NCBI GenBank assembly: GCA_963787465.1
Contig: CAWBDD010000018.1
Location: 29,612-93,611 of the forward strand
DNA: 64,000 nucleotides
Origin: an uncultured Thermoplasmata archaeon
GTDB taxonomy: Archaea > Thermoplasmatota > Thermoplasmata > UBA10834
Direction of reading: 5' to 3'
Shown here one piece after another: positions 13,196 through 64,000 of the stretch (its first letter is position 1; each line of letters starts with the position of its first letter). The translations under genes and the position numbers were made by a program. The notes under the pieces are model-generated. The model had not been told where the DNA came from. It saw nothing but the letters and a program-made list of their open reading frames with translations, and ran no database searches.

Positions 13196-13267
13196 GGGCC
13201 GTTAGATCAGCGGAAGATCGCTTGCTTCGCAAGCAAGAGGCCGTGGGTTCAAATCCCACACGGTCCA
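13196..13267 (+). tRNA. tRNA-Ala (anticodon CGC)
   Basis: Hand-folded cloverleaf: acceptor GGGCCGT/ACGGTCC with the G3:U70 alanine identity pair and discriminator A. D arm GATC-AGCGGAA-GATC. Anticodon loop TTCGCAA. T arm GTGGG-TTCAAAT-CCCAC. CCA is not encoded. Confidence 0.85.
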
Positions 13268-13629
13268 CTCGCCACCTTTCTTCGTCGACCGCATCTCGTA
13301 CCACTGCCCCTCGCGCTTCCTGAGAAGACGACATCCTGCATGAAGAACCGCATATGGAATCGTCACGCCATCTCGAATGATATCCTGGCTATCCGTCCGA
13401 GGCATGACCCCAGGCGCGGCAAGCCTAGACAGATTCTTGTAGGGATGTGGACATTGACCGTGTCAGGAGTGGAAATGGCGTGATTAGAGAGGATACCAGG
13501 GACATACCGGCACTCTTCACGGCGTTGGCAATGGTCTTAGGGGAATCGTTCTGCGTGAACATGCACCCTTCCTGGACCATCCAGACAGGAGAATAGTGCA
13601 CGAGAACAGACCGAGATTGGAGGAATCAC

Positions 13630-14562
13630 ATGTCATCGGACGAAGGCCTTTCGAAGGGACAAGCACCGGGGAACCGGGTTGGTCCCGCCGTCAAGATGAT
13701 GGCGGTCGCAGTCGCAGCAGTCGTGATCTCAGCGGTCCTTTTCATCTACCTCAGCCCGGACTACTCCTGGGACTCGTCAGTCAGAGACACAGACGGAGAC
13801 GGGTATGCCGACGCAAATGATGCGTTCCCTGACGAACCGACAGAATGGTTCGACAGCGATGATGATGGGACCGGCGACAACTCGGACGAATTCCACGACG
13901 ATGCGTCAGAACAGACCGACACCGATGACGACGGAGTAGGCGACAACAGTGACGAATTCCCAGAGGATCCCGAGGAGTCCACTGACTCGGACGACGATGG
14001 GGTAGGGGACAACGAGGACGAGTTCCCAGACGACCCGGAGGAGACCGACGACACTGACAACGACGGGGTGGGAGACAACACCGACGAGTTCCCGGATGAC
14101 CCAGAGGAATGGGTCGACAGCGATGGAGACGGCGTCGGTGACAACTCCGATGACTACCCAGACGACCCGACGCAATGGGAGGCGGAGACTCCGACGGCAG
14201 CGATTGTGAGGACGACAATCGCCAACGGTGTCAGGATCACGATCGTGACGATAGAGCCGCAGGTCTCATGGACGCTGATCACCATTACCCTCACAGACGG
14301 CACTGATACTGCCACCTGGACGGAAATCGACGCGGGAGAGCTCGACGACGGAGTGGCCGCCATCTCAGACTGTGGGGCGCAGTCCCTGGGTTCGACCGAA
14401 GTGAATCTGACCGTATTCGATATAATGGGAGATGGCGAGATTGGCTATGCCGACTTCTTCAATCTTGTCGCCATCTCCTTCTTCGCCGGCACGACCTACA
14501 CGGTCCAGATAGTCTATGAACTCACGGGTGAACCGATAGCGACAGGGTACTTCACTGGATAG
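13630..14562 (+). CDS. membrane-anchored protein with thrombospondin type-3-like calcium-binding repeats
   Basis: N-terminal TM helix (probable start at MMAVAV, 13696). About 5 tandem D-x-D-x-DG-V-G-D-N-x-D-E-F-P-(E/D)DPEE repeats. C-terminal beta-rich domain. Confidence 0.6.
   Translation: MSSDEGLSKGQAPGNRVGPAVKMMAVAVAAVVISAVLFIYLSPDYSWDSSVRDTDGDGYADANDAFPDEPTEWFDSDDDGTGDNSDEFHDDASEQTDTDDDGVGDNSDEFPEDPEESTDSDDDGVGDNEDEFPDDPEETDDTDNDGVGDNTDEFPDDPEEWVDSDGDGVGDNSDDYPDDPTQWEAETPTAAIVRTTIANGVRITIVTIEPQVSWTLITITLTDGTDTATWTEIDAGELDDGVAAISDCGAQSLGSTEVNLTVFDIMGDGEIGYADFFNLVAISFFAGTTYTVQIVYELTGEPIATGYFTG
13845..14170. repeat. imperfect tandem repeat, about 63-66 bp unit x5 (encodes TSP3-like repeats)
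   Basis: The unit gacgacggagtaggcgacaacagtgacgaattcccagaggatcccgaggag recurs with variation about every 63-66 bp. Confidence 0.7.
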
Positions 14563-22698: not shown

Positions 22699-23309
22699 GG
22701 ATGACCAATTTGCCAATGTACCGCTCTCCCCTCTCAACTTGCCGCAGGGCAGCAGGTCAAAGACCTTCCGCCCCCGCAAGCGCTTCTCTCCGCGAAACCT
22801 CACGACACTATATTAACATGCGCTCGTGCGACAAGAGTCTGGCCGTCGAAATCGAATTAGACTGTCGATTATTGTCACGGAACATCGTCGCACGGTGATT
22901 CTTCGAGATGCGTTCAGGCTCGACGGACTCACCGCAAACCTCTTTTATAGTGGGGTCCGTATTGGACGCTCGCTAGGCTCGACCGGGACGTTCGGCGTGT
23001 CCTTGTACACCGAAATCGTCGATAGCGGGGGTGACAGCTGGGGACGTCGTAACCGAACCGGCGCCGGTCCAGTTACCGACTGTGAGGCCCTGTCCGATGG
23101 GGTTGAAGGTGGCTCTGCGTGCCTGCCGGAGGGTAGGCATCTCTGCCTTCGCTGCGGAGATCGGGTCAGGCCCTGACGGGAACAGCCTTACCGTGGACTC
23201 GCAACGCTCATCGGGAAGCGGGGCCGAGGAGGTTTCTGGGTAGCCGACGCAGGGGAGGCCGGCAACTCCAGTGGCCTAGCACTTCTTTTCCACTCACATC
23301 GGTCGATCG

Positions 23310-46246: not shown

Positions 46247-46334
46247 GCAGGGGTAGCCAAGACCGGCCAACGGCGCAAGGCTTAGGACCTTGTCCAGCAG
46301 TGGTTCCGCGGTTCGAATCCGCGCCCCTGCACCA
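46247..46334 (+). tRNA. tRNA-Leu (anticodon TAG), CCA encoded
   Basis: Acceptor GCAGGGG/CCCCTGC. Long D loop. Anticodon arm CAAGG-CTTAGGA-CCTTG. Long variable arm (CCAGCAGTGG). T arm CGCGG-TTCGAAT-CCGCG. Discriminator A, then CCA. Confidence 0.85.
46278..46332 (+). repeat. direct repeat copy 1 (inside tRNA-Leu, anticodon arm to acceptor 3' strand)
   Basis: 55 nt identical to 46810..46864. Confidence 0.9.
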
Positions 46335-46809: not shown

Positions 46810-46864
46810 AGGCTTAGGACCTTGTCCAGCAGTGGTTCCGCGGTTCGAATCCGCGCCCCTGCAC
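46810..46864 (+). repeat. direct repeat copy 2: orphan 3' half of tRNA-Leu (att-like)
   Basis: 55/55 identity with 46278..46332. Lacks the 5' half of the tRNA, so it is not a gene. Confidence 0.9.
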
Positions 46865-49953: not shown

Positions 49954-50041
49954 GTCTGCGCCGCCGAGGATACTCGGGACCGCGGTCCCCGCGCCAACGC
50001 CGCCAAGGAACGGACGCCCCCACCGGCCGGTCGCGGTCACC

Positions 50042-51736
50042 TCAACGCCCGCCGAGGGCCGTTACGACACCCGTCCCTGCTTCTCGCACTCGTGGGTCGA
50101 GCAGGATGCGTGCAAGCCGGGCAAGGAGGTCGCGAAGTACATCGTGGACGGGGTGCCAGTGAGGATAGTCAACAGGGAGGCCAGGAGCCACGGCGAGTAC
50201 ATCTTCGACCCTCCCGAGTACAGGCTCCCTCCCCGCCATCTCCAGACCCTCGGCGAGGCTTCGCGGGAGATCTCCGACGCCGTCCCCGCCGATGTCGAGC
50301 TCAACTCCCTTTGGATGCTCAGACCGTACATCAAGTCGAGGGCGAAGGACCTCATCTACCGGAAACTGGTCATGTCGGCCGACGAAGGGAGTGATGCGAA
50401 GGATGTCGACAGGGAGAGCGACTTCCTCGCGGACCTCCTGTGCAGGTACACGGCCGGATACGGCGCCCTCGAGATACTCCTCAAGGACCCGAACGTCCAG
50501 GACATCTACGTGGACGCACCCTCCAGCCAGACGCCTGTCGAGGTCGTGCTCAGGTCGGAGGTCGGCGGGGCGGTCCGACAGAAGTGTCGGACGAACCTGT
50601 ACGTGGGCGCGCGTGACCTGGCATCGCTCGTCTCGCGCGTGAAGTTCGAGACAGGGCAGGCCGTTCTCCGAGGCGCGACCCGTGCTGGAGGCGGACATGA
50701 CCCGGCTCGGGGCGAGGATCACTATAGTGGGCCCCCCATTGAGCGACAAGGGGCATCTCCGTCGCGATAAGGAAGCATTCGCCCGCCGCGTGGACGATGC
50801 CCGCCCTTGTGGCGAACGGCTCGTTGTCGCCGCTCCTGTCGAGCTTCCTGTGGGCGTGTGTCGTGGGCAGGAGGACCGCGCTGATCGCCGGGAGCAGGGG
50901 CGCGGGGAAGACCACGCTCCTCGGGGCCATGATGATGGAGTTCCCGCTCTCCCAGAGGATCGTGGTGATAGAAGACACCCCGGAGATACCGCTCAGGAGG
51001 CTCCAGGAGATCGGCTACGACCTCTCGTCGCTGAGGTTCACCTCGGACGGGCAGGACGACAAGGGCTCGGCCAGGGAGGCCCTCAGGGTGAGCCTTAGGA
51101 TGGGGGAGAGCGCCATCGTCATAGGCGAGGTGAGGGGCGAAGAGGCGAAGGTCCTGTACGAGAGCATGAGGGCCGGGAGCGCCGGGTCATCCGTGCTCGG
51201 GACCATCCACGGGAACTCCGCGAAGGGCGTCCTGGACAGGGCGGTCGAGGACCTCGGGGGTCTCCGAGAGGGCCTTCTCGTCCACGGACATCATCGTCGT
51301 GATCGGGCTCATGCGGTCGCCGGACGGCGCGACCTTCACCAGGAGGGTGACCCAGGTCACCGAGGTCAGGGAGGTCGATGGGAAGGTCGTTCTAGTCGAC
51401 CTCTTCGCCACCGACCCCGGATGCTCCTGCGCGAAGCCCACGGCGGAGTTCTCGCCGAGGTGCAAGACGATGATTGGCATCGCGGACGCCCTGGGCATCC
51501 ATCCCGAGTCAGCGATGGACATCGTGAAGACGCGCGCGCACGCCGACCAGATCATGTCGGAGGTCAGGCGGCGCCACCACATGCTCCGACTCCGTGCGGG
51601 TCGACTCCAACGAGTTCCTCGCCCAGGCGCTCTTCCTGCCGGAGGGGCCGGAGGCCGGGCTCGAGAGGTGGAGGGGATGGTATGCCGGGAACGGGTCGAG
51701 GTGAGGCAGTGCAAAGGCAGGGCTCCAGGTATGTGA
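50042..51736 (+). CDS. type II/IV secretion (FlaI/PilB/TadA-like) ATPase, at least 2 apparent frameshifts
   Basis: N-domain (LLKDPNVQDIYVD), ...ITIVGPPLSDKG..., Walker A (IAGSRGAGKTTLL), EDTPE, GEVRGEEA, GTIHGNSA. C-terminal region has a CxC...C cluster. The three frames join via single extra C/G bases near 50662 and 50752. Start not resolved. Confidence 0.8.
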
Positions 51737-51756
51737 GTGCATGCGCAACCCTTGCC

Positions 51757-53508
51757 ATGATGGCCGACTGGCTCGGCGCCGGCCCTGCCGAGCCCCAGGG
51801 GAGCAGGAGGGGCGAGCCGCCAGAACCCCAGCGCATGGCGACTCTGAGGAAGGACCTGGAGCTCTCGATGCTCGGGGTCGGGGCGGGGACGGTGGCACGT
51901 GCCGCGAAGACCGCGGCGGTCCTGTCCGCCGCCGCGCTCGCATCCGCGACCGCCCTCGCGCTCCTCTTCCTGGGCACGACGCACGCGCTGGCACTGGCAT
52001 TCCTCACGATGGTAGTCCCGCTCCTCGCGGCCGAGGCCGTCAAGAGCTACCCTTCCGCGGTGGCTGCAAGGCGCGCCGCGGCGGTCCTCAAGGACTCGAC
52101 GGGGGCGGCCAACCTGATGATCATGAGCCTCAGGCACCAACCGTCGATACCGAAAGCGATCAGGTTCGCGACCAGCCGCAAGGACGAGTTCTCCAAGGAG
52201 CTGAGGAGGTGCACCTGGAACGTGGTCATGGGTCGACACCAGAGCTTCGAGGACGCCCTGCAGTCGCTCGGAGACAGGTGGGCGCAGCACAGCACTGAGC
52301 TGAAGGCCGCCCTCAACTCGATGGTCACCGCATCGTGCGAGGCGACCGAGGAGGGGAAGAGGAGGGCGCTGGACCGCGCGAACAGATCCATGGTGGCAGG
52401 GGCGAGGCGCAGGATAGAGGACTACGCGCTCTCGCTCTCGACCCCGAGCATGGTGATGTTCGGGATGGGCATCCTGCTTCCGATCATGGTCGGTTCCTTC
52501 CTGCCTATGATGTCGTGGGACCTGTGGTCCCCCGCGTCCGGCGGCCCGCCGTCGGAAGGGTCCTCCTCGAGCATCATCATCCAGACCGCGTTCATCATGA
52601 ATCTCGTGTTCCCGCTCGTTGCGTTCGTGGTGGCGAACGACGCCGCATCGAAGCACCCGCTCGAGAGGGCGGCCTCCGGTACACGGTACGGCGCCGCCGT
52701 CGGTATGACGGTCCCTGCGATCGCGGCGGCATCCTCCGCTGCGATGCTGCTCACCTCCCTGCTCCTCCTTGATGGGATGTGGATGGCCGCCTGCGTGCTC
52801 ATGTCCGTCATCCTGCCGCTCGCGGCCGTGCTGATGGCCATCGGACGCGGCGACCCTCGGTCGCCCAGCGGGAGCACGAGGACGGGGCTGGAGGACGGGC
52901 TGTTCCGGACCGGTGCCAGGATGCTCGAGGGCGAGAACTTCGAGACCGCCCTCAGGAGGTCGGCAGAGGACGTCGGGAGGGAGGACGGCATGTCGATGCG
53001 GCGGCTCGCGGTCGGGTCGTGCGTCCTCGGCCTGGACCTGGGCCAGGCGCTCTCGGAGGACAGGTCCCTGGCGGGGTCGAACGCCGCCGAGGCGTTCATG
53101 GTTGTCCGCGAGGCGGCCAGGAAGGACGAGCGCTCCGCGGGGCTGCTGGCGATGGACATCGCGGCCTATCTGCGGGACCTCAGGGAGCTCGAGTCGTCGT
53201 TGAAGAGCAGGCTCCGGCCGACCGTGTCGATGATGCGCATGACGGCGCACGTGCTCGGGCCGGTGGTGCTCGGCGTCACCTACTCGATATACCTGACCCT
53301 GTCGGGTATGCTGGACGGCCAGGGGATGGATCCCAGCTGGCTCTTCCTGATCCTCGGGGCCTTCCTCGCGGAGACCAACCTGGCGGTGACCTACTTCGTG
53401 TGGGGGATCCAAGGCAGGCCCGGGAAGAAGGCGCTGGCACGTTCGGCGGGGGCATGCCTGCTCGTGTCAGAACTCGTGTACACGGCCACGGCGGTGTTGG
53501 CCAGCTGA
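51757..53508 (+). CDS. FlaJ/TadC-like (T2SS F-domain) polytopic membrane protein
   Basis: 584 aa from MMADWLG. Two repeats of the GspF-like helical/TM architecture. Located immediately after the secretion ATPase. Confidence 0.7.
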   Translation: MMADWLGAGPAEPQGSRRGEPPEPQRMATLRKDLELSMLGVGAGTVARAAKTAAVLSAAALASATALALLFLGTTHALALAFLTMVVPLLAAEAVKSYPSAVAARRAAAVLKDSTGAANLMIMSLRHQPSIPKAIRFATSRKDEFSKELRRCTWNVVMGRHQSFEDALQSLGDRWAQHSTELKAALNSMVTASCEATEEGKRRALDRANRSMVAGARRRIEDYALSLSTPSMVMFGMGILLPIMVGSFLPMMSWDLWSPASGGPPSEGSSSSIIIQTAFIMNLVFPLVAFVVANDAASKHPLERAASGTRYGAAVGMTVPAIAAASSAAMLLTSLLLLDGMWMAACVLMSVILPLAAVLMAIGRGDPRSPSGSTRTGLEDGLFRTGARMLEGENFETALRRSAEDVGREDGMSMRRLAVGSCVLGLDLGQALSEDRSLAGSNAAEAFMVVREAARKDERSAGLLAMDIAAYLRDLRELESSLKSRLRPTVSMMRMTAHVLGPVVLGVTYSIYLTLSGMLDGQGMDPSWLFLILGAFLAETNLAVTYFVWGIQGRPGKKALARSAGACLLVSELVYTATAVLAS

Positions 53509-55475: not shown

Positions 55476-57398
55476 GTGAATCCAATGGGCATAGAGAAGG
55501 TTCTAGAAGAAGCCAGGGAGGCAGTGAGGAAGACCATCCCCTCCCACATCGAGGTCACCGACGTGGACTTCGAGGGGCCGGTGATAGTCATTTACACCCG
55601 CAACCTCGAGGAGTTCGCGCACAACAACGACCTCGTCCGTCAGCTGGCGCAGTCCCTCAGGAGGAGGGTAGCGATAAGACCAGACCCCAAGATGCTGGCG
55701 GAGACCGAGAGCGCCGAGGAGCGCATCAGGAAGATCATTCCGGACGAGGCGAAGATAACCAACATCTACTTCGAGGACGACACTGGCGAGGTGACCATCG
55801 AGGCGCTCTCGCCCGGTCTCGTGATCGGCAAGCACGGGGCGGTCCTCAACGAGATCAAGAAGGAGATAGGCTGGGCGCCGAAGGTCGTCAGGGCGCCCCC
55901 GATACCCTCCAAGACCGTGAGCGACATCCGCACCTACCTCAGGAAGGTCCAGGACGAGAGGAAGGACTTCCTCCGGAAGGTGGGGAAGAAGCTGATGCGC
56001 CAGAAGGCCTCCGATGACACCATCCTGAGGATCACCGCGCTCGGCGGCTTCCGCGAGGTCGGAAGGAGCGCCGCCCTGCTGATGACCAGGGAGAGCAAGG
56101 TGCTCATAGACTGCGGCGTCGCGGTATCCGCGGACGAGAACGGCTCCACGCCCTACCTGAACGCCCCCGAGCTCCAGCCACTTGACTCAATTGATGGCGT
56201 CGTCGTGACGCACGCACACCTCGACCACTCCGGACTCGTCCCCGCCCTGTTCAAGTACGGCTACGAGGGCCCGATATACTGCACGCCTCCGACCAGGGAC
56301 CTGATGTCCCTGCTCCAGGTCGATTTCATCAAGGTCGCGGTCGGCGAGGCGAAGAAGGCGCCCTACGAATCTTCGCACGTGCGCGAGACGGTCATGCACT
56401 GCATCCCCCTCAAGTACGGCGAGACCACAGACATCTCACCAGACATCAGGCTCACGTTCCAGAACGCCGGGCACATCCTCGGCTCCGCGATCGCCCACTT
56501 CCACGTCGGCGACGGACTCTACAACATCGCATTCTCTGGCGACATCAAGTTCGAGAAGTCCTGGCTCTTCAACGCCACGGTGAACAAGTTCCCAAGGCTG
56601 GAGACCCTGGTCATAGAATCGACCTACGGCGGGTACCACGACATGCAGCCCAGCCGGCAGGAGGCGGCCAACCAGATGAAGGAGATCGTCAGGACCGCCC
56701 TCGCGAGGGGCGGCAAGGTCCTCATCCCCGTCTTCGCAGTCGGGAGGTCCCAGGAGGTCATGCTCGTCCTCGAGGAAGGGATGAGGAACCACCAGATCCA
56801 GAGGGCCCCCATCTACCTCGACGGGATGATATGGGAGGCCACGGCCATCCACACGGCGTACCCCGAGTACCTGAACAGCCAGCTCAGGACCCAGATCTTC
56901 CAGATGGGTGAGAACCCGTTCCTGTCCGACATCTTCAAGCGTGTCGACAGCTCCGAGATGAGGGAGCGCATCGCCCACGACCCCGAGCCATGCATCGTGC
57001 TCGCGACGAGCGGCATGATGAACGGAGGGCCGGTCATGGAGTACTTCAAGTCATGGTGCGACAACCAGCAGAACACCCTCGTCTTCGTCGGGTTCCAGGG
57101 CGAGGGGACCATGGGTCGCAAGATCCAGAAGGGCTGGAACGACATCACTCTCAACGACCGCGGGAAGCAGCTCACCCTACACATGAGGATGGACGTCGAG
57201 ACGGTGGACGGGTTCTCCGGCCACTCGGACAGGCGCCAGCTGGTCAACTACATAAGCACCCTGGAGCCGAGGCCAGAGCGCATCATCATCGGCCACGGCG
57301 AGGACTTCAAGTGCTCCGACCTCGCGAGCACCATCTACAAGAAGTTCGGGATCGAGACGCGCGCGCCGATGAACCTCGAGACCATCAGGCTGAAGTGA
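55476..57398 (+). CDS. aCPSF1/FttA-type KH + beta-CASP metallo-beta-lactamase ribonuclease
   Basis: Two N-terminal KH domains. HAHLDHSG motif. Beta-CASP and C-terminal motifs. Confidence 0.9.
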   Translation: MNPMGIEKVLEEAREAVRKTIPSHIEVTDVDFEGPVIVIYTRNLEEFAHNNDLVRQLAQSLRRRVAIRPDPKMLAETESAEERIRKIIPDEAKITNIYFEDDTGEVTIEALSPGLVIGKHGAVLNEIKKEIGWAPKVVRAPPIPSKTVSDIRTYLRKVQDERKDFLRKVGKKLMRQKASDDTILRITALGGFREVGRSAALLMTRESKVLIDCGVAVSADENGSTPYLNAPELQPLDSIDGVVVTHAHLDHSGLVPALFKYGYEGPIYCTPPTRDLMSLLQVDFIKVAVGEAKKAPYESSHVRETVMHCIPLKYGETTDISPDIRLTFQNAGHILGSAIAHFHVGDGLYNIAFSGDIKFEKSWLFNATVNKFPRLETLVIESTYGGYHDMQPSRQEAANQMKEIVRTALARGGKVLIPVFAVGRSQEVMLVLEEGMRNHQIQRAPIYLDGMIWEATAIHTAYPEYLNSQLRTQIFQMGENPFLSDIFKRVDSSEMRERIAHDPEPCIVLATSGMMNGGPVMEYFKSWCDNQQNTLVFVGFQGEGTMGRKIQKGWNDITLNDRGKQLTLHMRMDVETVDGFSGHSDRRQLVNYISTLEPRPERIIIGHGEDFKCSDLASTIYKKFGIETRAPMNLETIRLK

Positions 57399-57402
57399 GC
57401 GC

Positions 57403-58329
57403 TCACCGGACGGACAGCCTCTCGCCCTTTCTGCCGACCAGGACGACCCTGCTGTCCTCCCTCTCCGCGAGCAGGTCCATGGAGAGACGGGAGGCCAGTC
57501 TCCCCGAGAACTCCCTCACCGAGGAGTGGGATGGCATGTTGTCGATCGTCATCCTCGTCCGCGAGTCGCCGACGAACACATAGCCCTTGGGTTCGATGAA
57601 GGTCGGGTCCGCGCGCTCGTCCAGCTTCGCGTACTCGTCCTCCCAGCCCAGGTTCCACCCCTTCACGAGGGTGTGCCGCACCACCGTGCGCGTGGACAGC
57701 GACGGCAGGAGGTCCAGGGTCGCCATCAGGTTCTCCCAGGCCCGCGGGAACTGCGGCACGCAGAGCCTCTCGAAGATGTCCTCGTTCGGTGCGGCGACCG
57801 TTACGTACAGCTGCGTGGGAAGGGTGGACAGGTTGGCCAGCGCCTCTGGGACAGAGCCGTTCGTGACGAGGAAAGTGGTCATCCCCCTCCGCTTGCACAG
57901 CGCGATGAACTCGCCCAGATCGGGGTACAAGGTCGGCTCACCAGAGAGTGATATGGCCACCTGGTTCGGCGTCCTAGCCTCCTCCCAGAGCTTGGGGTCG
58001 CAACGCTCGTCTCCCTTGAACCCTGACACGAGGAGCCTCTGCTCCTCCATGCACCTGTCCAGGAGGCGCTCTGGCTCCGGGTATCCGCCCTCCCCGAAGC
58101 CCGTCATGCCGTGGTACCTCCAACAGAACAGGCATCTCAGGTTGCAGACGTTGACGGCAGGGGTCATCTGCAGGCATCTGTGGCATTCGATGCCGTAGAA
58201 CTCCTCCTTGTAACACGAGCGGCCGTGTATCAGCTTCTGTCGCATCCAGTGGCACAGCTTCACCGCTCCGGCACCGTCGATGACGCGGTACTGCTGCCTC
58301 TCCAGGTGCTCCCTTGTCCTTTCGTCCAA
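57403..58329 (-). CDS. taw1: tRNA 4-demethylwyosine synthase (radical SAM, Taw1/TYW1)
   Basis: CNLRCLFCW radical-SAM cluster. C-terminal wyosine-base synthesis domain. Confidence 0.8.
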   Translation of the reverse strand: MDERTREHLERQQYRVIDGAGAVKLCHWMRQKLIHGRSCYKEEFYGIECHRCLQMTPAVNVCNLRCLFCWRYHGMTGFGEGGYPEPERLLDRCMEEQRLLVSGFKGDERCDPKLWEEARTPNQVAISLSGEPTLYPDLGEFIALCKRRGMTTFLVTNGSVPEALANLSTLPTQLYVTVAAPNEDIFERLCVPQFPRAWENLMATLDLLPSLSTRTVVRHTLVKGWNLGWEDEYAKLDERADPTFIEPKGYVFVGDSRTRMTIDNMPSHSSVREFSGRLASRLSMDLLAEREDSRVVLVGRKGERLSVR

Positions 58330-58338
58330 CGAGACCCC

Positions 58339-59655
58339 TCAGAAGTCCGTCAGGCTCCTCTTCCCCCTTCCGCCGGGCTTCGAGCCCGTCCTGCCAGCGC
58401 GGTCAGAGGGCCAGCTGCCCTTCACTGCCCTCACCTTCGCGACGATCTCGGAGACCTCCTTCGAATCCGGTTCGGTCCCGAGCAGATAGGCAATGTCACC
58501 CTCATCCAGCCCCGCACCGGTCGCCAGCCTCACCACGAAGTCCTTGTCCCTCCTCGCGAGCTCGGACAGGTACGGGAGGGTGGATTCCGCCACCCGTCTC
58601 GGCGATGCGTGGAGCACGGCTCCCAGCTTCCTGCACACGGATTCCCGGATCGTCCTCTGCCCCTTTGCGCGGGAGAGGACCATGAACTGCTGGGGGAAAC
58701 CGTAGTCTTCCACATGTGGCCGCGGGCTCGCGCCCCTCGACAGAGCCACACCACCCGTCATCAAGTCCTTCGCATGGGCCCAGAACCTGTAGTGTTGGAG
58801 CTTCCGCGTCCTCCCCAGATATACATCCGAACGAGAAAGCGCATCGAAGGCCGCGGCGACCTCCTCCGGCGTCCTGAACTCCCGGGTGATGCCCTCCTCG
58901 ATCCACTTCTCGAGCTCGTCCGGCGTCACGTCCAGGTCCATGGTCGCGTCCCTCGCGGCCTTCAACGTCCTTGCGCCAAAGACGCTCCTAAGCGCCACTG
59001 CCAGCTCCTTCTCCTGGTTCCTCTTACCCAGGGCGCCGGTGTCGCTCGACGAGACCGTCGACCTTCCCTCGACGAGCATCTGCAGGTCGTTGACCGCGGC
59101 CCGTAGGTCCCCCCCCAGCGTTGCCAGCTATGCTCTCCAGAGGCCCTTGCTCGACCGAGATGCCTCGACGCGGGCAACTCCTCGTCAGGACGTCGACGAC
59201 CACGCGTTTATCAGCGCCCATAGTCGTCTACGATGAGAATGATGGGCTGGCTCGATGACTTGATGACGTCCACTATCGCTTTCGCGCCGCCGTAGTCCCC
59301 TCCGTGGCGCGCCTTGTCCAGGACTATTAGCTTCATCCTGCCCTGGGCCGTTGACTTGAACTCCCCGTCGAGGGTCAACTGTCTGGGCATACCGCACCCT
59401 GGCGATGCGTTCAATTCGACTCGGCGTTCCTGTGGTCAGACGCGTTCATCGACCATGTCCCAGCCATAGTCGTTGCGCCAACGCCGAGCTGAGTCTTGCC
59501 TATTCCGGGGCTCCCCCATCAACACGAGCGCCTTCTTCTGAGGGATGCCTCTGACGATGCATCAGCCCACCGCTTCATGTGCGAACGGCTTTCAGACCTC
59601 GGCAAGAGTCTTGGGCTCTTGGTCCACTTTCGCATCTCGACCGCGCGATAGGGCA
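58339..59655 (-). pseudogene. rfcL: replication factor C large subunit, left (inverted) copy, broken into at least 3 frames
   Basis: C-terminal 246 aa intact (..TPDELEKWIEEGI..). The middle ([20 protein letters not shown]) and N-terminus ([11 protein letters not shown]) lie in other frames. Mirror image of 63465..64000. Confidence 0.6.
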
Positions 59656-61527
59656 TCAAGGACTTAATCCCGCGGGGTCTCGTGGCGCGCTTCTATTGGC
59701 AGGGGTGCGGCAGCCCCTGTTCAGACCGACATTTAACCAAATATATGTGTAAAATGTTTATATGGAAATAGTTTAGCATGATGCTACAGTCGCAGAGCAG
59801 CCAAGGAGCTCGAGTGGTTCGGACTGGCGGAAACCCCCTCCTCGTCCCGAGCCGTCCCAGCCTCCCCTGATTCATCAGACCGTGATGCCCGGGAGGAGAC
59901 GTCTGGACAGGTGCCCTTGCGGTCGTCCATCGTGAGGTATGCGCGACCTCGATGTGGGAGTGCCCCAAGGGCGGAGAACCTGAGGTCTATGCTAATAGTC
60001 AGTGCCTGGACGGCGTGAGTGTGTCTTAGGAACTGCTGCGGGTGGCGCTTATCTGGCTCGATGCCGACCTTCTCGGCGTAGTTGGAGACCAGCCGCTCCA
60101 CCTGCCGCCTGGACAGCGGGCCACGCTTGTTCGAGACGAAGAGCGGATCTTCCGGTTCTTCCTCGTGCCGATATAGTCGTGGAGCATCGTCTTGGTCCAA
60201 CTGTTATTTTTGGAACCTCGCGGCTCCTGAGCCTCTTCGCCCTCTGAATCGTTACCTCGCTCGATGCTCACCGATTGTCAAGGACGAATGGCTCGCCGAC
60301 CCTCATCCCCGTTTCGTACATGAGTCGCAATTGCAATTACAATTGGATCGTGCATCGTCTAGGAGCTTCGAGCAACGCCTTTAGCTCGTCCTCCTTGAGA
60401 TACTTTCTCATGGTAGAATCCATTGTTGGACCATTGTCGGACAAAGCATCGGTTTATGTCTATATAAAAATGACGCATTTTGGGTCTAAAATACGCTGCA
60501 GCCCCCTCTACCCCCTCCCCACCCCAAGTTACGACAACTTATACCCGTTTGTTGCCGTCTCGTCCGTGGCTCATGTCCAGAAGCCCCAACTCATGAGGAA
60601 TTCGTGCTACTCCGTATCACGGTTCTGGAAAAAGGGGCTAAAACCCCCCTAGGAGACACCGAAAAAAGGGGATCAAGCCCGGAGATTACCCTTTGCCCCC
60701 TACGGGGGCAGGCACGGCCCTGAATACATCATATCGATTGATTTTCATAGTATGTACCGCAAGGACCGCAGTTTGTATACCTCATACCTAAACGGCCGTC
60801 CGACGACGGCGGACGGCGTGCTATGTCACTGCACGACACGGACGACTTACTCAGCGTGAGCCACGCTAACACGTCGCTATATCTCGCGGTGAGGACGCAT
60901 ACGATTGGTGATGAGAGGCTAGACCCCAATTTGTTGACGGCCGGGCCCAAACTTAGGACCCCGGTGGGTAACCCCCAGACAGCCAGCACCCTGCCAGAGC
61001 GCATATTCCCTCGAGAATGCGAACCCATAGAGCCACCGTGCCTAACATCACAGCGCATGCACTGAGGCGACAATATGGTACACATAGCATTTGTAAATGT
61101 AGTTGTGCATCTCCAAATTCTTGTATATGTACTGCATATAATGCACCTTGTCGGGGTCTGCCTATCAAATACAAGAATCTCGAATAACGGAGCGAAGGCT
61201 CTAATACGAAATCACGCTCGAACAGGCGAGGGAATTACGCCGAGCAAAAGATCATCGCACTCTCCACTTCTTCAGAGGACCATCTGGGTGTCATCTGAGT
61301 TTCTCTCGTGGACATTCTCCAGGAACAGTACAATTAAATCTGGGAGGTCCGCGTGGCCAGCACCCGAAGAGACTGCGCAAGCCGAGGCACAGGATTCGGA
61401 GGACGGATTTGTCGAGGCACAGCGCATTTCGACCCCTCTAATAACACGGGCGCCTTGGCAGGGGAAGCGACAGAAGAGTGCGGCGGTCGTTCCGCGCTTC
61501 ATGATGGCCGGAAGTGAGTCCATGGTC
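59130..61527. repeat. left arm of giant palindrome (inverted repeat)
   Basis: Reverse complement matches 61543..64000 at roughly 95% with scattered indels and substitutions. The arm probably extends left to 58339. Confidence 0.9.
59784..60411 (-). pseudogene. degenerate inverted copy of the small tyrosine recombinase
   Basis: Segments NSWTKTMLHDYIGTRKNRK and DPLFVSNKRGPLSRRQVERLVSNYAEKVGIEPDKRHP are identical to the right-hand recombinase but interrupted by several indels. Confidence 0.55.
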
Positions 61528-62613
61528 AGACTCGGCAGCCTGGACCATGGACTCACTTCCGGCATCATGAAGCGCGGAACGACCGCCGCACTCTTCTGTC
61601 GCTTCCCCTCAAGGCGCCCGTGCTATTTAGAGGGGTCGAAATGCGCTGTGCCTCGACAAATCCGTCCTCCGAATCCTGTGCCCTCACTGCGCATCTCTTC
61701 GGGTGCTGGCCACGCGGACCTCCCAGATTTAATTGTACTGTTCCCTGGAGAATGTCCACGAGAGAGAAACCAGATGACACCCAGATGGTCCATCTGGAGG
61801 ATCGAGGAGTGTATGCGATGGTCGGTTTTCCTCGCGTAATTCCCTCGCCTGTTCGAGCGTGATTTCGTATTAGAGCCTTCGCTCCGTTACTCGAGATTCT
61901 TGTATTGATAGGCGGCCCGACAAGGTGCATTATATGCAGTACATATACAAGAATTTGGAGATGCGCAACTACATTTACAAATGCTATGTGTACCATATTG
62001 TCGCCTCGGTGCATACGCTGTGATGTTAGGCACGGTGGCTCTCTGCGGAATGGGTTCGCATTCTCGAGGGAATATGCGCTCTGGCAGGGTGCTGGCTGGA
62101 TGTCTGGCTGCCCACGGGTGTGACCGTTGGGCCGGCGGATCAATTGGGGTCTAGCCTCTCATCACCAATCGTATGCGTCCTGAATCTCGCGGAGTGTCGC
62201 GACGTGTTAGCGTGGCTCACGCTGAGTAAGTCGTCCGTGTCGTGCGGTGACATAGCACGCCGTCCGCCGTCGTCGGACGGCATTTTAGGTATGAGGTATA
62301 CAAACTGCGGTGCTTGCGGTACATACTATGAAAATCAATCGATATGATGTATTCAGGGCCCTGCCTTGCCCCCGTAGGGGGCAAAGGGTGATCCGAGGGC
62401 TTAGAATCCCCTTTTTTCGGTGTCTCCTAGGGGGGTTTTAGCCCCTTTTTTCAGAACCGTGATACGGAGTAGCACGAATTCCTCATGAGTTGGGGTCTGG
62501 ACATAGCGCCCCACGGACGAGACGGCAACAAATAGGGTATAAGTTGTCGTTTTCACTAGGGGTGGGGAGGGGGTAGAGGGGGCTCAGGGCGTTTTAGACC
62601 CAAAATGCGTCAT

Positions 62614-62624
62614 TTTTATATAGA
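62614..62624 (+). promoter_or_regulatory. TATA box (TTTTTATATAG) upstream of recombinase
   Basis: About 57 nt upstream of the ATG at 62681. Confidence 0.4.
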
Positions 62625-62680
62625 CATAAACCGATGCTTTGTCGGACAATCGTCCAACAGGTAAGGGATGGGAACCTACC

Positions 62681-63334
62681 ATGAGAAAGTATCTCAAGGA
62701 GGACGAGCTAAAGGCGTTGCTCGAAGCTCCTAGACGGATGCGCGATCGTCTGATCATCAAACTCATGTACGAAACGGGGATGAGGGTCGGCGAGCTAGCG
62801 TCCTTGACAATCGGTGACGTGGACCTCGAGTCGAGCGAGGTAACGATTCAGAGGGCGAAGAGGCATGAGGAGGGCCGCAAGGTCCCGATCATCAACAGTT
62901 GGACCAAGACGATGCTCCACGACTATATCGGCACGAGGAAGAACCGGAAGGATCCGCTCTTCGTCTCGAACAAGCGTGGCCCGCTGTCCAGGCGGCAGGT
63001 GGAGCGGCTGGTCTCCAACTACGCCGAGAAGGTCGGCATCGAGCCAGATAAGCGCCACCCGCACGTCCTAAGACACACTCACGCCGTCCAGGCACTCAAG
63101 TCTGGCATAGACCTCAGGACTCTGCAGCAGAACCTGGGGCACTCCAGCATCGAGGTCACGGCCATATACCTCACGATGGACATCGACGACCGCAAGGAGC
63201 AGTACTCCAAGCATCCTCTCCCGGGCATGGCGGATTCTGATGAATCAGGGGAGGCTGGGACGGCTCGGGACGAGGAGGGGGTTTCCGTCCACTCGAACCA
63301 CTCGAGCTCCTTCGTGCTCTCAAGTGATGTATAG
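62681..63334 (+). CDS. small tyrosine recombinase, catalytic domain only (no N-terminal core-binding domain)
   Basis: 217 aa from MRKYLKEDELKALLEAP. Tyrosine-recombinase catalytic boxes: R (MRDRLIIKLMYETGMRVGEL), HVLRHTHA, RTLQQNLGHSSIEVTAIYL (Tyr). Acidic C-terminal tail. Confidence 0.8.
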   Translation: MRKYLKEDELKALLEAPRRMRDRLIIKLMYETGMRVGELASLTIGDVDLESSEVTIQRAKRHEEGRKVPIINSWTKTMLHDYIGTRKNRKDPLFVSNKRGPLSRRQVERLVSNYAEKVGIEPDKRHPHVLRHTHAVQALKSGIDLRTLQQNLGHSSIEVTAIYLTMDIDDRKEQYSKHPLPGMADSDESGEAGTARDEEGVSVHSNHSSSFVLSSDV

Positions 63335-63464
63335 CATCGTGCTAAACTATTTCCATATAAACATTTTACACATATATTTGTAAATGTCAGTGCTGAACAG
63401 GGGCTGCCGCACCCCTGCCGATGAACATTTTCGCAGACCCCGCGGGATTAATTCATATTCCTTG

Positions 63465-64000
63465 ATGCCCTATCGCGCGGTCGAGATGCCGGAAGAGTGG
63501 ACCGAGAAGTACAGACCCAAGACTCTTGCCGAGGTCATGGGCAACGCTGAAGCCGTTCGCAGCATGAAGCGGTGGGCTGATGCATGGTCCAGAGGCATCC
63601 CTCAGAAGAAGGCGCTCGTGTTGATGGGGGAGCCCGGAATAGGCAAGACCAGCTCGGCGTTGGCGCTGGCCAACGACTATGGCTGGGACATGGTCGAGAT
63701 GAACGCGTCCGACCACAGGAACGCCGAGTCGATCAAACGCGTCGCAGGCCAGGGTGCGGTATCCCAGACGTTGACCCTCGACGGGGAGTTCAAGTCAACG
63801 GCCCAGGGCAGGATGAAGCTAATAGTCCTGGACGAGGCGGACAACCTGTTCGGCCGCGAGGACTACGGCGGCGCGAAAGCGATAGTGGACGTCATCAAGT
63901 CATCGAGCCAGCCCATCATTCTCATCGTCAACGACTACTACGAGCTGACCAGGAAGGCGTCCGCGCTGAAGTCGCTCTCGGAATCCGTGGTGTTCAGGCG
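63465..64000 (+). CDS. rfcL: replication factor C large subunit (5' part; runs off window end)
   Basis: [21 protein letters not shown]...[19 protein letters not shown]...NASD...[10 protein letters not shown], in one frame. Confidence 0.8.

Follow-up and report, generated by a model that had tools for sequence, protein, structure and literature searches.

The window analysed here comprises 64,000 nucleotides (nt) of an uncultured Thermoplasmata archaeon (contig CAWBDD010000018.1 of assembly GCA_963787465.1) and ends in a long inverted repeat, a palindrome that contains two copies each of the gene for a small tyrosine recombinase and of the 5′ portion of rfcL. Comparison of the 64 kb with itself returned a single inverted match (59221-63937, 87.2% identity over about 4.9 kb) and no second inverted repeat within the window. 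A gapped alignment of the left arm with the reverse complement of the right arm placed the centre at 61528-61542, 15 nt that lack self-complementarity, flanked by a left arm of approx. 59220-61527 and a right arm of 61543-64000. Both comparisons confirm the repeat and its centre as described in the original prediction, which had been made from the sequence letters. The gene content holds as well: the right arm carries an intact recombinase gene and rfcL codons 1-171, and in the left arm both genes are frameshifted many times and split over several frames. The arms had been regarded as near-perfect copies differing by about 5%. In our alignment, 86.7% of the columns match and about 13% differ. 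The differences comprise 101 substitutions and 107 indel events, and 93 of the indels have a length not divisible by three. Moreover, the mirror image does not extend to the window end as had been assumed, because the outermost 63 nt of the right arm (63938-64000) face a deletion of about 22 codons in the left copy and have no counterpart there.

Genes and features around the palindrome

The features from the unique flank to the end of the window are as follows.

55476-57398, forward strand: aCPSF1/FttA gene, in the clean unique flank outside the palindrome (Pfam Beta-Casp, KH_TffA and RMMBL)
57403-58329, reverse strand: taw1 (wyosine radical-SAM), in the clean unique flank (Pfam Wyosine_form and Radical_SAM); single frame in comparison with relatives
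58339-59212, reverse strand: 3′ part of rfcL, codons ~175 to stop; unique flank, part of the genuine single-copy gene
59213-61527, reverse strand: noisy left arm, a copy of raw-read quality containing rfcL codons 1-152, the rfcL promoter, the recombinase gene and the 1.13-kb intergenic region; its outer end bears a 63-nt deletion
61528-61542, reverse strand: 15-nt turn, fitting best as M20-peptidase codons 3-7 (Q A A E S) in continuation of the right arm
61543-61548, reverse strand: start and codon 2 of the M20-peptidase gene (ATG at 61548-61546; alignment A2)
61549-62680, no strand: right-arm intergenic region between the M20-peptidase and recombinase genes, 1.13 kb; no Pfam or Rfam family
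62681-63334, forward strand: XerA-like tyrosine recombinase of 217 amino acids (aa), catalytic domain only; intact right-arm copy (Pfam Phage_integrase, 5e-41)
63335-63485, forward strand: intergenic region between recombinase and rfcL (rfcL promoter) with a promoter-like AT-rich box
63486-64000, forward strand: rfcL codons 1-171, intact right-arm copy running off the window end (Pfam AAA and Rad17)

The aCPSF1 product was recovered in a single frame with 85-91% identity to relatives over 637 aa. The 3′ part of rfcL also occupies one frame, with residues 185-461 located at 59178-58339 by tblastn with the rfcL product of L003 as query. The rfcL residues 1-171 encoded in the right arm are 85-89% identical to those of relatives.

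One-sided differences between the arms

To assign the differences to one arm or the other, we polarised them with three outgroups (L001, L002 and L003) over the recombinase gene and the region encoding the rfcL N-terminus. All gap columns of the left arm (107/107) were left-specific deletions, and 31 further gap columns were left-specific insertions. The sole right-specific indel, an AAA-to-AA change at 62672, is located upstream of the coding sequence. Among the polarisable substitutions, the right arm agreed with the outgroup in 125 cases and the left arm in 6, i.e. 125 of 131 are left-derived. Altogether, about 95% of the polarisable changes fall on one arm.

The spectrum of the changes looks like error. 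The 107 indel events, made up of 64 deletions and 43 insertions in the left arm, stand against 101 substitutions, whereas the real divergence of the same stretch from four relatives amounts to 8-25 indel events per 154-246 substitutions. The differences are clustered: over most of the arm, a stretch of 50 nt contains anything between 0 and 18 of them. Moreover, the left arm changed 11.2% of the non-coding positions with at least 90% conservation across 39 other genomes, compared with 7.4% of the unconserved ones. So the left arm is the right arm plus noise that is blind to reading frame and conservation. A real inverted duplication should have diverged like any other sequence, mainly by substitutions, in both lineages and with respect for selection, and this is not the pattern found.

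Boundary of the noise and symmetry of the arms

The noise ends within rfcL. In the left copy, the first 152 codons contain approx. one indel per 22 nt, whereas the last 280 codons (59178-58339) form a single open frame alignable with relatives over its full length, except for one to three small frameshifts in the first approx. 100 nt (59111-59212). At the junction, left rfcL lacks about 22 codons, corresponding to the last 63 nt of the right arm, and then resumes with DKRVVVDVLTR. The onset of the noise was placed by protein-level frames, as the DNA alignment with L001 and L003 was uninformative as a ruler in the 3′ half of rfcL, where protein identity is only about 52%. An arm length of about 3.2 kb, as initially considered, is not supported, because the open 280-codon frame of left rfcL begins only a few nt from where the window end is mirrored.

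This coincidence can be put into numbers. The 2308 nt of the left arm, 89 net missing bases and the 63-nt junction deletion add up to 2460 nt, compared with 2458 nt in the right arm. Hence, the clean flank resumes within a few nt of the point that mirrors the window end. Such symmetry is the pattern of one DNA fragment read out on one strand and back on the other, and it predicts that the contig ends at or near 64000. By this calculation, we infer that the window end is the contig end.

Decay of the left copies into pseudogenes was considered and rejected, since it would have had to spare the last 280 codons of the very same gene. Had the duplication reached beyond the boundary, decay of the same degree would be expected in the 3′ half of left rfcL, but it is absent there. 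If it stopped at the boundary, the genome would be left without an intact rfcL, which encodes a presumably essential clamp-loader subunit. Thus, the damage of the left arm is technical under either extent of the duplication.

The turn lies in an M20-peptidase gene

The distance between the ATG of the recombinase gene and the centre is 1146 nt. A gene for an M20 peptidase, identified in relatives by Pfam Peptidase_M20 and maps of open reading frames (ORFs), is located 1.09-1.15 kb upstream of the recombinase gene in L081, L083, L003 and L007. Using blastn, positions 61540-61634 of the window matched the M20 start region of L083 (8845-8942) with 73% identity over 100 nt (E 6e-8). Alignment A2 compares the window with the M20 start regions of L083, L081 and L003. 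On the minus strand, the window reads GGAAGTGAGTCC ATG GTC CAG GCT GCC GAG TCT and then continues as its mirror image, and L083 reads GGAGTGAGTCC ATG GCC CAG ACG TTC AAG GCA. A Shine-Dalgarno-like sequence (GGAAGTGA) is found just upstream of the M20 ATG on this strand. Judged by the alignment, the sequence turns back seven codons into a conserved M20-peptidase gene. Read as M20 codons 3-7, the 15-nt loop is best taken to continue the right arm; this orientation rests on about four conserved nt, the CAG codon plus one nucleotide.

No adapter was recognized at the turn. Local alignments with Oxford Nanopore Technologies (ONT), PacBio, Nextera and TruSeq adapters did not exceed the 95th percentile of the null distribution there. 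Inspection by eye found no convincing inverted microhomology at the junction.

A conserved single-copy neighbourhood

At least 25 of the species-representative loci share the order recombinase - rfcL - taw1 - aCPSF1 - proteasome subunit; another 80 loci, from metagenomes, had been collected by searching with the recombinase itself. The content of the arms is, as far as gene order and sequence conservation tell, an ordinary single-copy chromosomal neighbourhood conserved in more than 100 Thermoplasmata loci. It is internal in long contigs of relatives and in CP070736.1, CP070732.1 and OY970070.1, which are titled 'chromosome'. A comparison of the rfcL neighbourhood with that of relatives had been proposed as a check, and it revealed fixed synteny and no inverted self-repeat of at least 200 nt in any of 160 related loci.

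The nearest genomes are metagenome-assembled, with an rfcL N-terminus 85-89% identical to that of the window. Searches of species-representative genomes, metagenome contigs and a collection of 5.8 billion proteins returned no relative closer than 93% for the recombinase or 89% for rfcL. Exact-sequence look-ups of the recombinase (as a 231-aa ORF) and of aCPSF1 in an assembly index gave no match, and a 28-mer beside the centre had no match in metagenome contigs and none in viral contigs.

In one of the two readings initially offered, several parts of the repeat would be components of a mobile or hairpin-type element, and the comparison with relatives assigns them more ordinary roles. The supposed AT-rich end block is the intergenic (promoter) region between recombinase and rfcL, which is 78-80% identical in L001 and L003. 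The non-coding core corresponds to the intergenic region between the M20-peptidase and recombinase genes, 1.09-1.15 kb long in the closest relatives. It can hardly be called hairpin-rich as it contains two terminator-like sites, where 1.6 are expected, and only three short imperfect inverted repeats. No Rfam family was found in this region or in the corresponding loci of relatives. A match of 61412-61656 to Rfam MIR856, a plant microRNA precursor, on both strands was discarded (117 bits with a gathering threshold of 297); it reflects the long perfect hairpin at the centre. Two ORFs crossing the core (254 and 192 aa) were likewise dismissed as genes, having no Pfam family and low-complexity translations.

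A conservation profile of 93 loci divides the intergenic region into a fast-evolving inner part (approx. 61640-62236) and a strongly conserved outer part (62237-62680), which is colinear in 40 of 40 aligned genomes (alignment A1). The outer part could be a regulatory region or a small RNA. Alignment A1 also shows a near-invariant TATA box upstream of the recombinase gene (62611-62622). Between this box and the ATG lies an operator-like palindrome of the type TCGGAC-N4-GTCCGA (62642-62657), the right half of which is GTCCAA in the window. The conserved upstream region further contains a hairpin of the sequence GTCCG-N7-CGGAC (62259-62281), a hairpin TTGCCCC-loop-GGGGCAA whose loop varies, several copies of a GTGCTA-N5-TAGCAC-like motif and the 33-nt block AACGGCGACAAATAGGGTATAAGTTGACG. 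One conserved hairpin is located at 62366-62384. The tblastn signal of a "small divergent gene" at 62181-62477 is more plausibly due to conserved non-coding DNA, which gives matches in more than one frame.

The recombinase is a resident chromosomal gene

The recombinase belongs to a family with 279 homologues, those listed being mostly 215-223 aa long. As the closest homologues all start with MRKYL, the true start is the ATG at 62681. Only one Pfam domain (PF00589) was found. The protein matches positions 94-263 of the 263 positions of NCBIfam NF040815 (archaeal XerA) with 181 bits, below the cutoff of 220, at about 3e-53, and its best match in the PDB is residues 137-313 of Thermoplasma acidophilum XerA. 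A full-length match above the cutoff that includes the N-terminal domain, as expected of the archaeal XerA equivalog, was thus not obtained. Canonical XerA has both a catalytic and an N-terminal SAM-like core-binding domain (PMC8371274). XerA of Pyrococcus abyssi and T. acidophilum (NF040815, PDB 5hxy and 4a8e; PMC8371274) nevertheless represents the most similar family and is likewise encoded by a chromosomal gene. Read from the sequence, the catalytic residues R, K, H-x-x-R, H and Y are retained in the window protein. In contrast to XerA, it consists of the catalytic domain only (217 aa) and stays below the equivalog cutoff; no dif site was identified. In at least 25 of the species-representative Thermoplasmata loci, rfcL directly follows the gene of such a catalytic-domain-only XerA-like recombinase.

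A recombinase-borne element had been one of the two readings initially offered, and a tyrosine recombinase gene does lie in each arm. The absence of a core-binding domain, reminiscent of FimB/FimE-type invertases, would suit an invertible switch. However, the matches to NCBIfam tyrosine-type DNA invertases are weak (about 1e-18, compared with 3e-53 for XerA), and colinearity of the upstream region in all 40 aligned genomes speaks against an inversion polymorphism. The features of an integrated element are missing, too. There is no tRNA gene in 58000-64000, no att-like direct repeat at the arm ends, no match to viral contigs and no patchy distribution. Rather, more than 100 loci show the gene in fixed synteny with rfcL, some of them internal to records of 1.4-2.0 Mb titled 'chromosome', and the centre of the repeat is no dedicated site but a break seven codons into the M20 coding sequence. 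Besides, the established mechanism of tyrosine recombinases leads to inversion or excision of DNA, not to its duplication. So the recombinase is a resident chromosomal gene and not the integrase of an element, and it has no part in creating the palindrome.

Origin of the palindrome

We are confident, though short of certain, that the palindrome arose technically, by a fold-back at the contig end, and does not belong to the genome. The true chromosome would carry a single array of a divergent M20-peptidase gene, the 1.13-kb intergenic region, the XerA-like mini-recombinase gene, rfcL, taw1 and aCPSF1. One long read, most likely from a nanopore, would have started at a break in rfcL (codon ~171) and run to codon 7 of the M20-peptidase gene. 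The same read would then have turned onto the complementary strand and returned to the same fragment end, a template-complement fold-back. Tiling of the whole read onto the contig end would link its returning, poorly called arm to the flank (59213-61527) and leave the first arm (61543-64000) plus the 15 nt as a dangling mirror tip colinear with the genome. During polishing, reads from the true locus would align to the better arm and clean it, and the other arm would stay at raw-read quality. Platform, single-read origin and polishing dynamics are part of this proposal, which starts from directly visible properties of the sequence: the structure itself, one-sided and error-like differences, symmetric ends, single-copy synteny in relatives and a turn inside a gene. 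A fold-back chimera with one unpolished arm had been one of two readings initially offered, and it is favoured here as the noise is one-sided, indel-dominated, blind to selection and ends at the mirror image of the sequence end.

Fold-backs account for approx. 0.55-0.6% of ONT genomic DNA reads, and fewer than half of them have more than 11 bp between the two alignments (PMC12870357). The Breakinator tool calls a fold-back when two segments map to one locus on opposite strands with breakpoints within 200 bp, and it treats fold-backs near the read midpoint (within 10%) as artefacts (PMC12870357). The palindrome shows both properties. Its segments are on opposite strands with breakpoints separated by a 15-nt spacer (61528-61542), the fold is near the midpoint of the molecule (2458 and 2460 nt on its two sides) if the window end is taken as the molecule end, and the turn reads best as M20 codons, with no adapter detected. 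The likeness to described artefact reads (Heinz, Meyerson & Li 2026, PMC12870357; Warris et al. 2018, PMC6218980) further extends to read-level error in one half and to the position of the palindrome at the end of the available sequence. Whole-genome amplification is another source of artificial palindromes that harm long-read assembly (PMC6218980). Unlike the reads in these reports, the sequence examined here is an assembled and partly polished contig, in which the clean arm must have undergone polishing and the noisy arm is the one joined to the flank.

The kind of noise also has a precedent. When nanopore reads pass through inverted duplicates, error rates are high and bases are missed close to the junction (Spealman, Burrell & Gresham 2020, PMC7229812). 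The errors are likewise asymmetric, bursty and deletion-biased in the window, and they are confined to the arm after the junction when the palindrome is read from its right end. The published cases are real inverted duplications in yeast and human DNA, and the effect is therefore silent on whether a junction is real or chimeric.

Some observations fit less well with a fold-back artefact. The single-read origin and a contig end at 64000 rest on inference. The joining of an unpolished arm to a well-polished flank is unusual and requires an assumption on read recruitment or layout. The noise is patchier than that of a simple raw read, with exact runs of up to 113 nt, and the sequence just beyond the mirrored zone still has one to three small frameshifts within about 100 nt (59111-59212). 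The collections searched contain neither the source species (best recombinase match 93% identical) nor an independent assembly across the centre. Finally, a real but mis-polished recent palindrome would yield a similar final sequence.

The rival that survives best is a real and recent inverted duplication in the strain or in part of the population, to which we grant an outside chance. It would truncate the M20-peptidase gene at codon 7, and everything from the intergenic region through the recombinase gene to the 5′ part of rfcL would be duplicated. The left-arm noise would still be technical and originate from failure of nanopore base-calling past the inverted junction, in line with the degradation reported for real inverted duplicates (PMC7229812), or from mis-polished multi-mapping reads. 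The final sequence alone cannot separate a real palindrome from a chimeric read, and a graph assembly with a repeat between the hairpin turn and the repeat boundary would also break at these two points. Long inverted arms, a short non-palindromic spacer and a breakpoint inside a gene are shared with real fold-back inversions, for which an asymmetric spacer of 15 nt is typical, too. In contrast to such inversions, the differences between the arms are not dominated by substitutions, none of the 160 related loci contains a repeat of this kind, and the sequence appears to stop at the mirror point of noise onset with no new sequence beyond. Reads in both directions should also give the two arms a similar consensus quality, but one is clean and the other raw. 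A palindrome with arms of 2.4 kb around a 15-nt spacer would also be expected to be highly unstable in a prokaryotic chromosome with Mre11-Rad50/SbcCD-type processing. A related idea, just as improbable, is that some cells carry the fold-back as a fresh palindromic duplication, or as a DNA end in snap-back or hairpin form, created where the M20-peptidase gene begins. If this were true, the conserved XerA-like mini-recombinase gene and the start of rfcL would be duplicated, and the left-arm noise would reflect the known failure of nanopore sequencing on inverted duplicates.

Hybrid mis-scaffolding is a still weaker candidate and, in our view, very unlikely. Here, a short-read contig (the right arm) would have been appended the wrong way round and the gap filled with a raw long read (the left arm). 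This scenario would account for three tiers of quality, namely the clean flank and right arm, a patch with four frameshifts described below and the raw-quality left arm. It also agrees with the genome coordinates, in which the outer end of the right arm adjoins the inner end of the clean flank to within a few nt, just like two neighbouring contigs. However, the short-read contig would have to end at the turn by coincidence, as otherwise a fold-back read is still needed, and the break of the short-read contig in the middle of rfcL is left without a cause. Seen without the assembly graph, the picture is the same as that produced by a fold-back read. We attach next to no credence to a hairpin telomere of a linear replicon, or to the integrated or invertible element dealt with above, for although long reads around a hairpin telomere would give a terminal palindrome, the locus is internal in relatives and the only recombinase present is XerA-like and no protelomerase.

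Other features of the window

The gene of a T2SSE-family ATPase (type IV pilus/archaellum-type) at 49961-51692 contains four +1 frameshifts in comparison with three relatives. They are located at approx. 50655, 50745, 51257 and 51565, two of them in C6 and G5 runs, within a patch of 67-70% GC. Probably, these are residual consensus errors rather than signs of a pseudogene. They are of the long-read type, and their occurrence outside the palindrome speaks for the fold-back reading. As a result of the frameshifts, the ORF 50797-53508 fuses two genes. The proteasome subunit gene is in a single frame, as are aCPSF1 and taw1. Frame calling based on GC content at third codon positions over the whole window was too noisy for counting frameshifts.

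A tRNA-Leu gene (anticodon TAG) at 46247-46334 was found by ARAGORN and is not listed by the Rfam scan at gathering threshold. Its 3′ 55 nt are repeated exactly 532 nt downstream (46810-46864), which is an att-like signature around a remnant of about 0.5 kb without integrase, probably the relic of an integrated element. Direct repeats with an offset of 66 nt and about 70% identity (13825-14179) are situated inside a 310-aa ORF (13630-14562). If they are in frame, their spacing suggests a protein with tandem repeats of about 22 residues. The archaeal signal recognition particle RNA (22971-23281, 152 bits) and a tRNA-Ala (CGC, 13196-13268) are ordinary housekeeping RNA genes.

Implications

Taken at face value, the palindrome would introduce a false second recombinase, a false second rfcL, two false pseudogenes and a false "hairpin element" into the annotation of the genome, and it would hide a real neighbour, the M20-peptidase gene. 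For practical purposes, the contig should be trimmed at approx. 61527 and 59105-61527 polished anew. The value of the finding lies mainly in quality control. The approach provides a recipe for recognizing such artefacts in finished sequences: polarisation with outgroups, comparison of the ratio of indels to substitutions with that of real divergence, and a test of whether the end of the noise mirrors the end of the contig. Apart from the palindrome, the catalytic-domain-only XerA-like recombinase and its conserved upstream region beside rfcL across the Thermoplasmata may deserve a study of their own.

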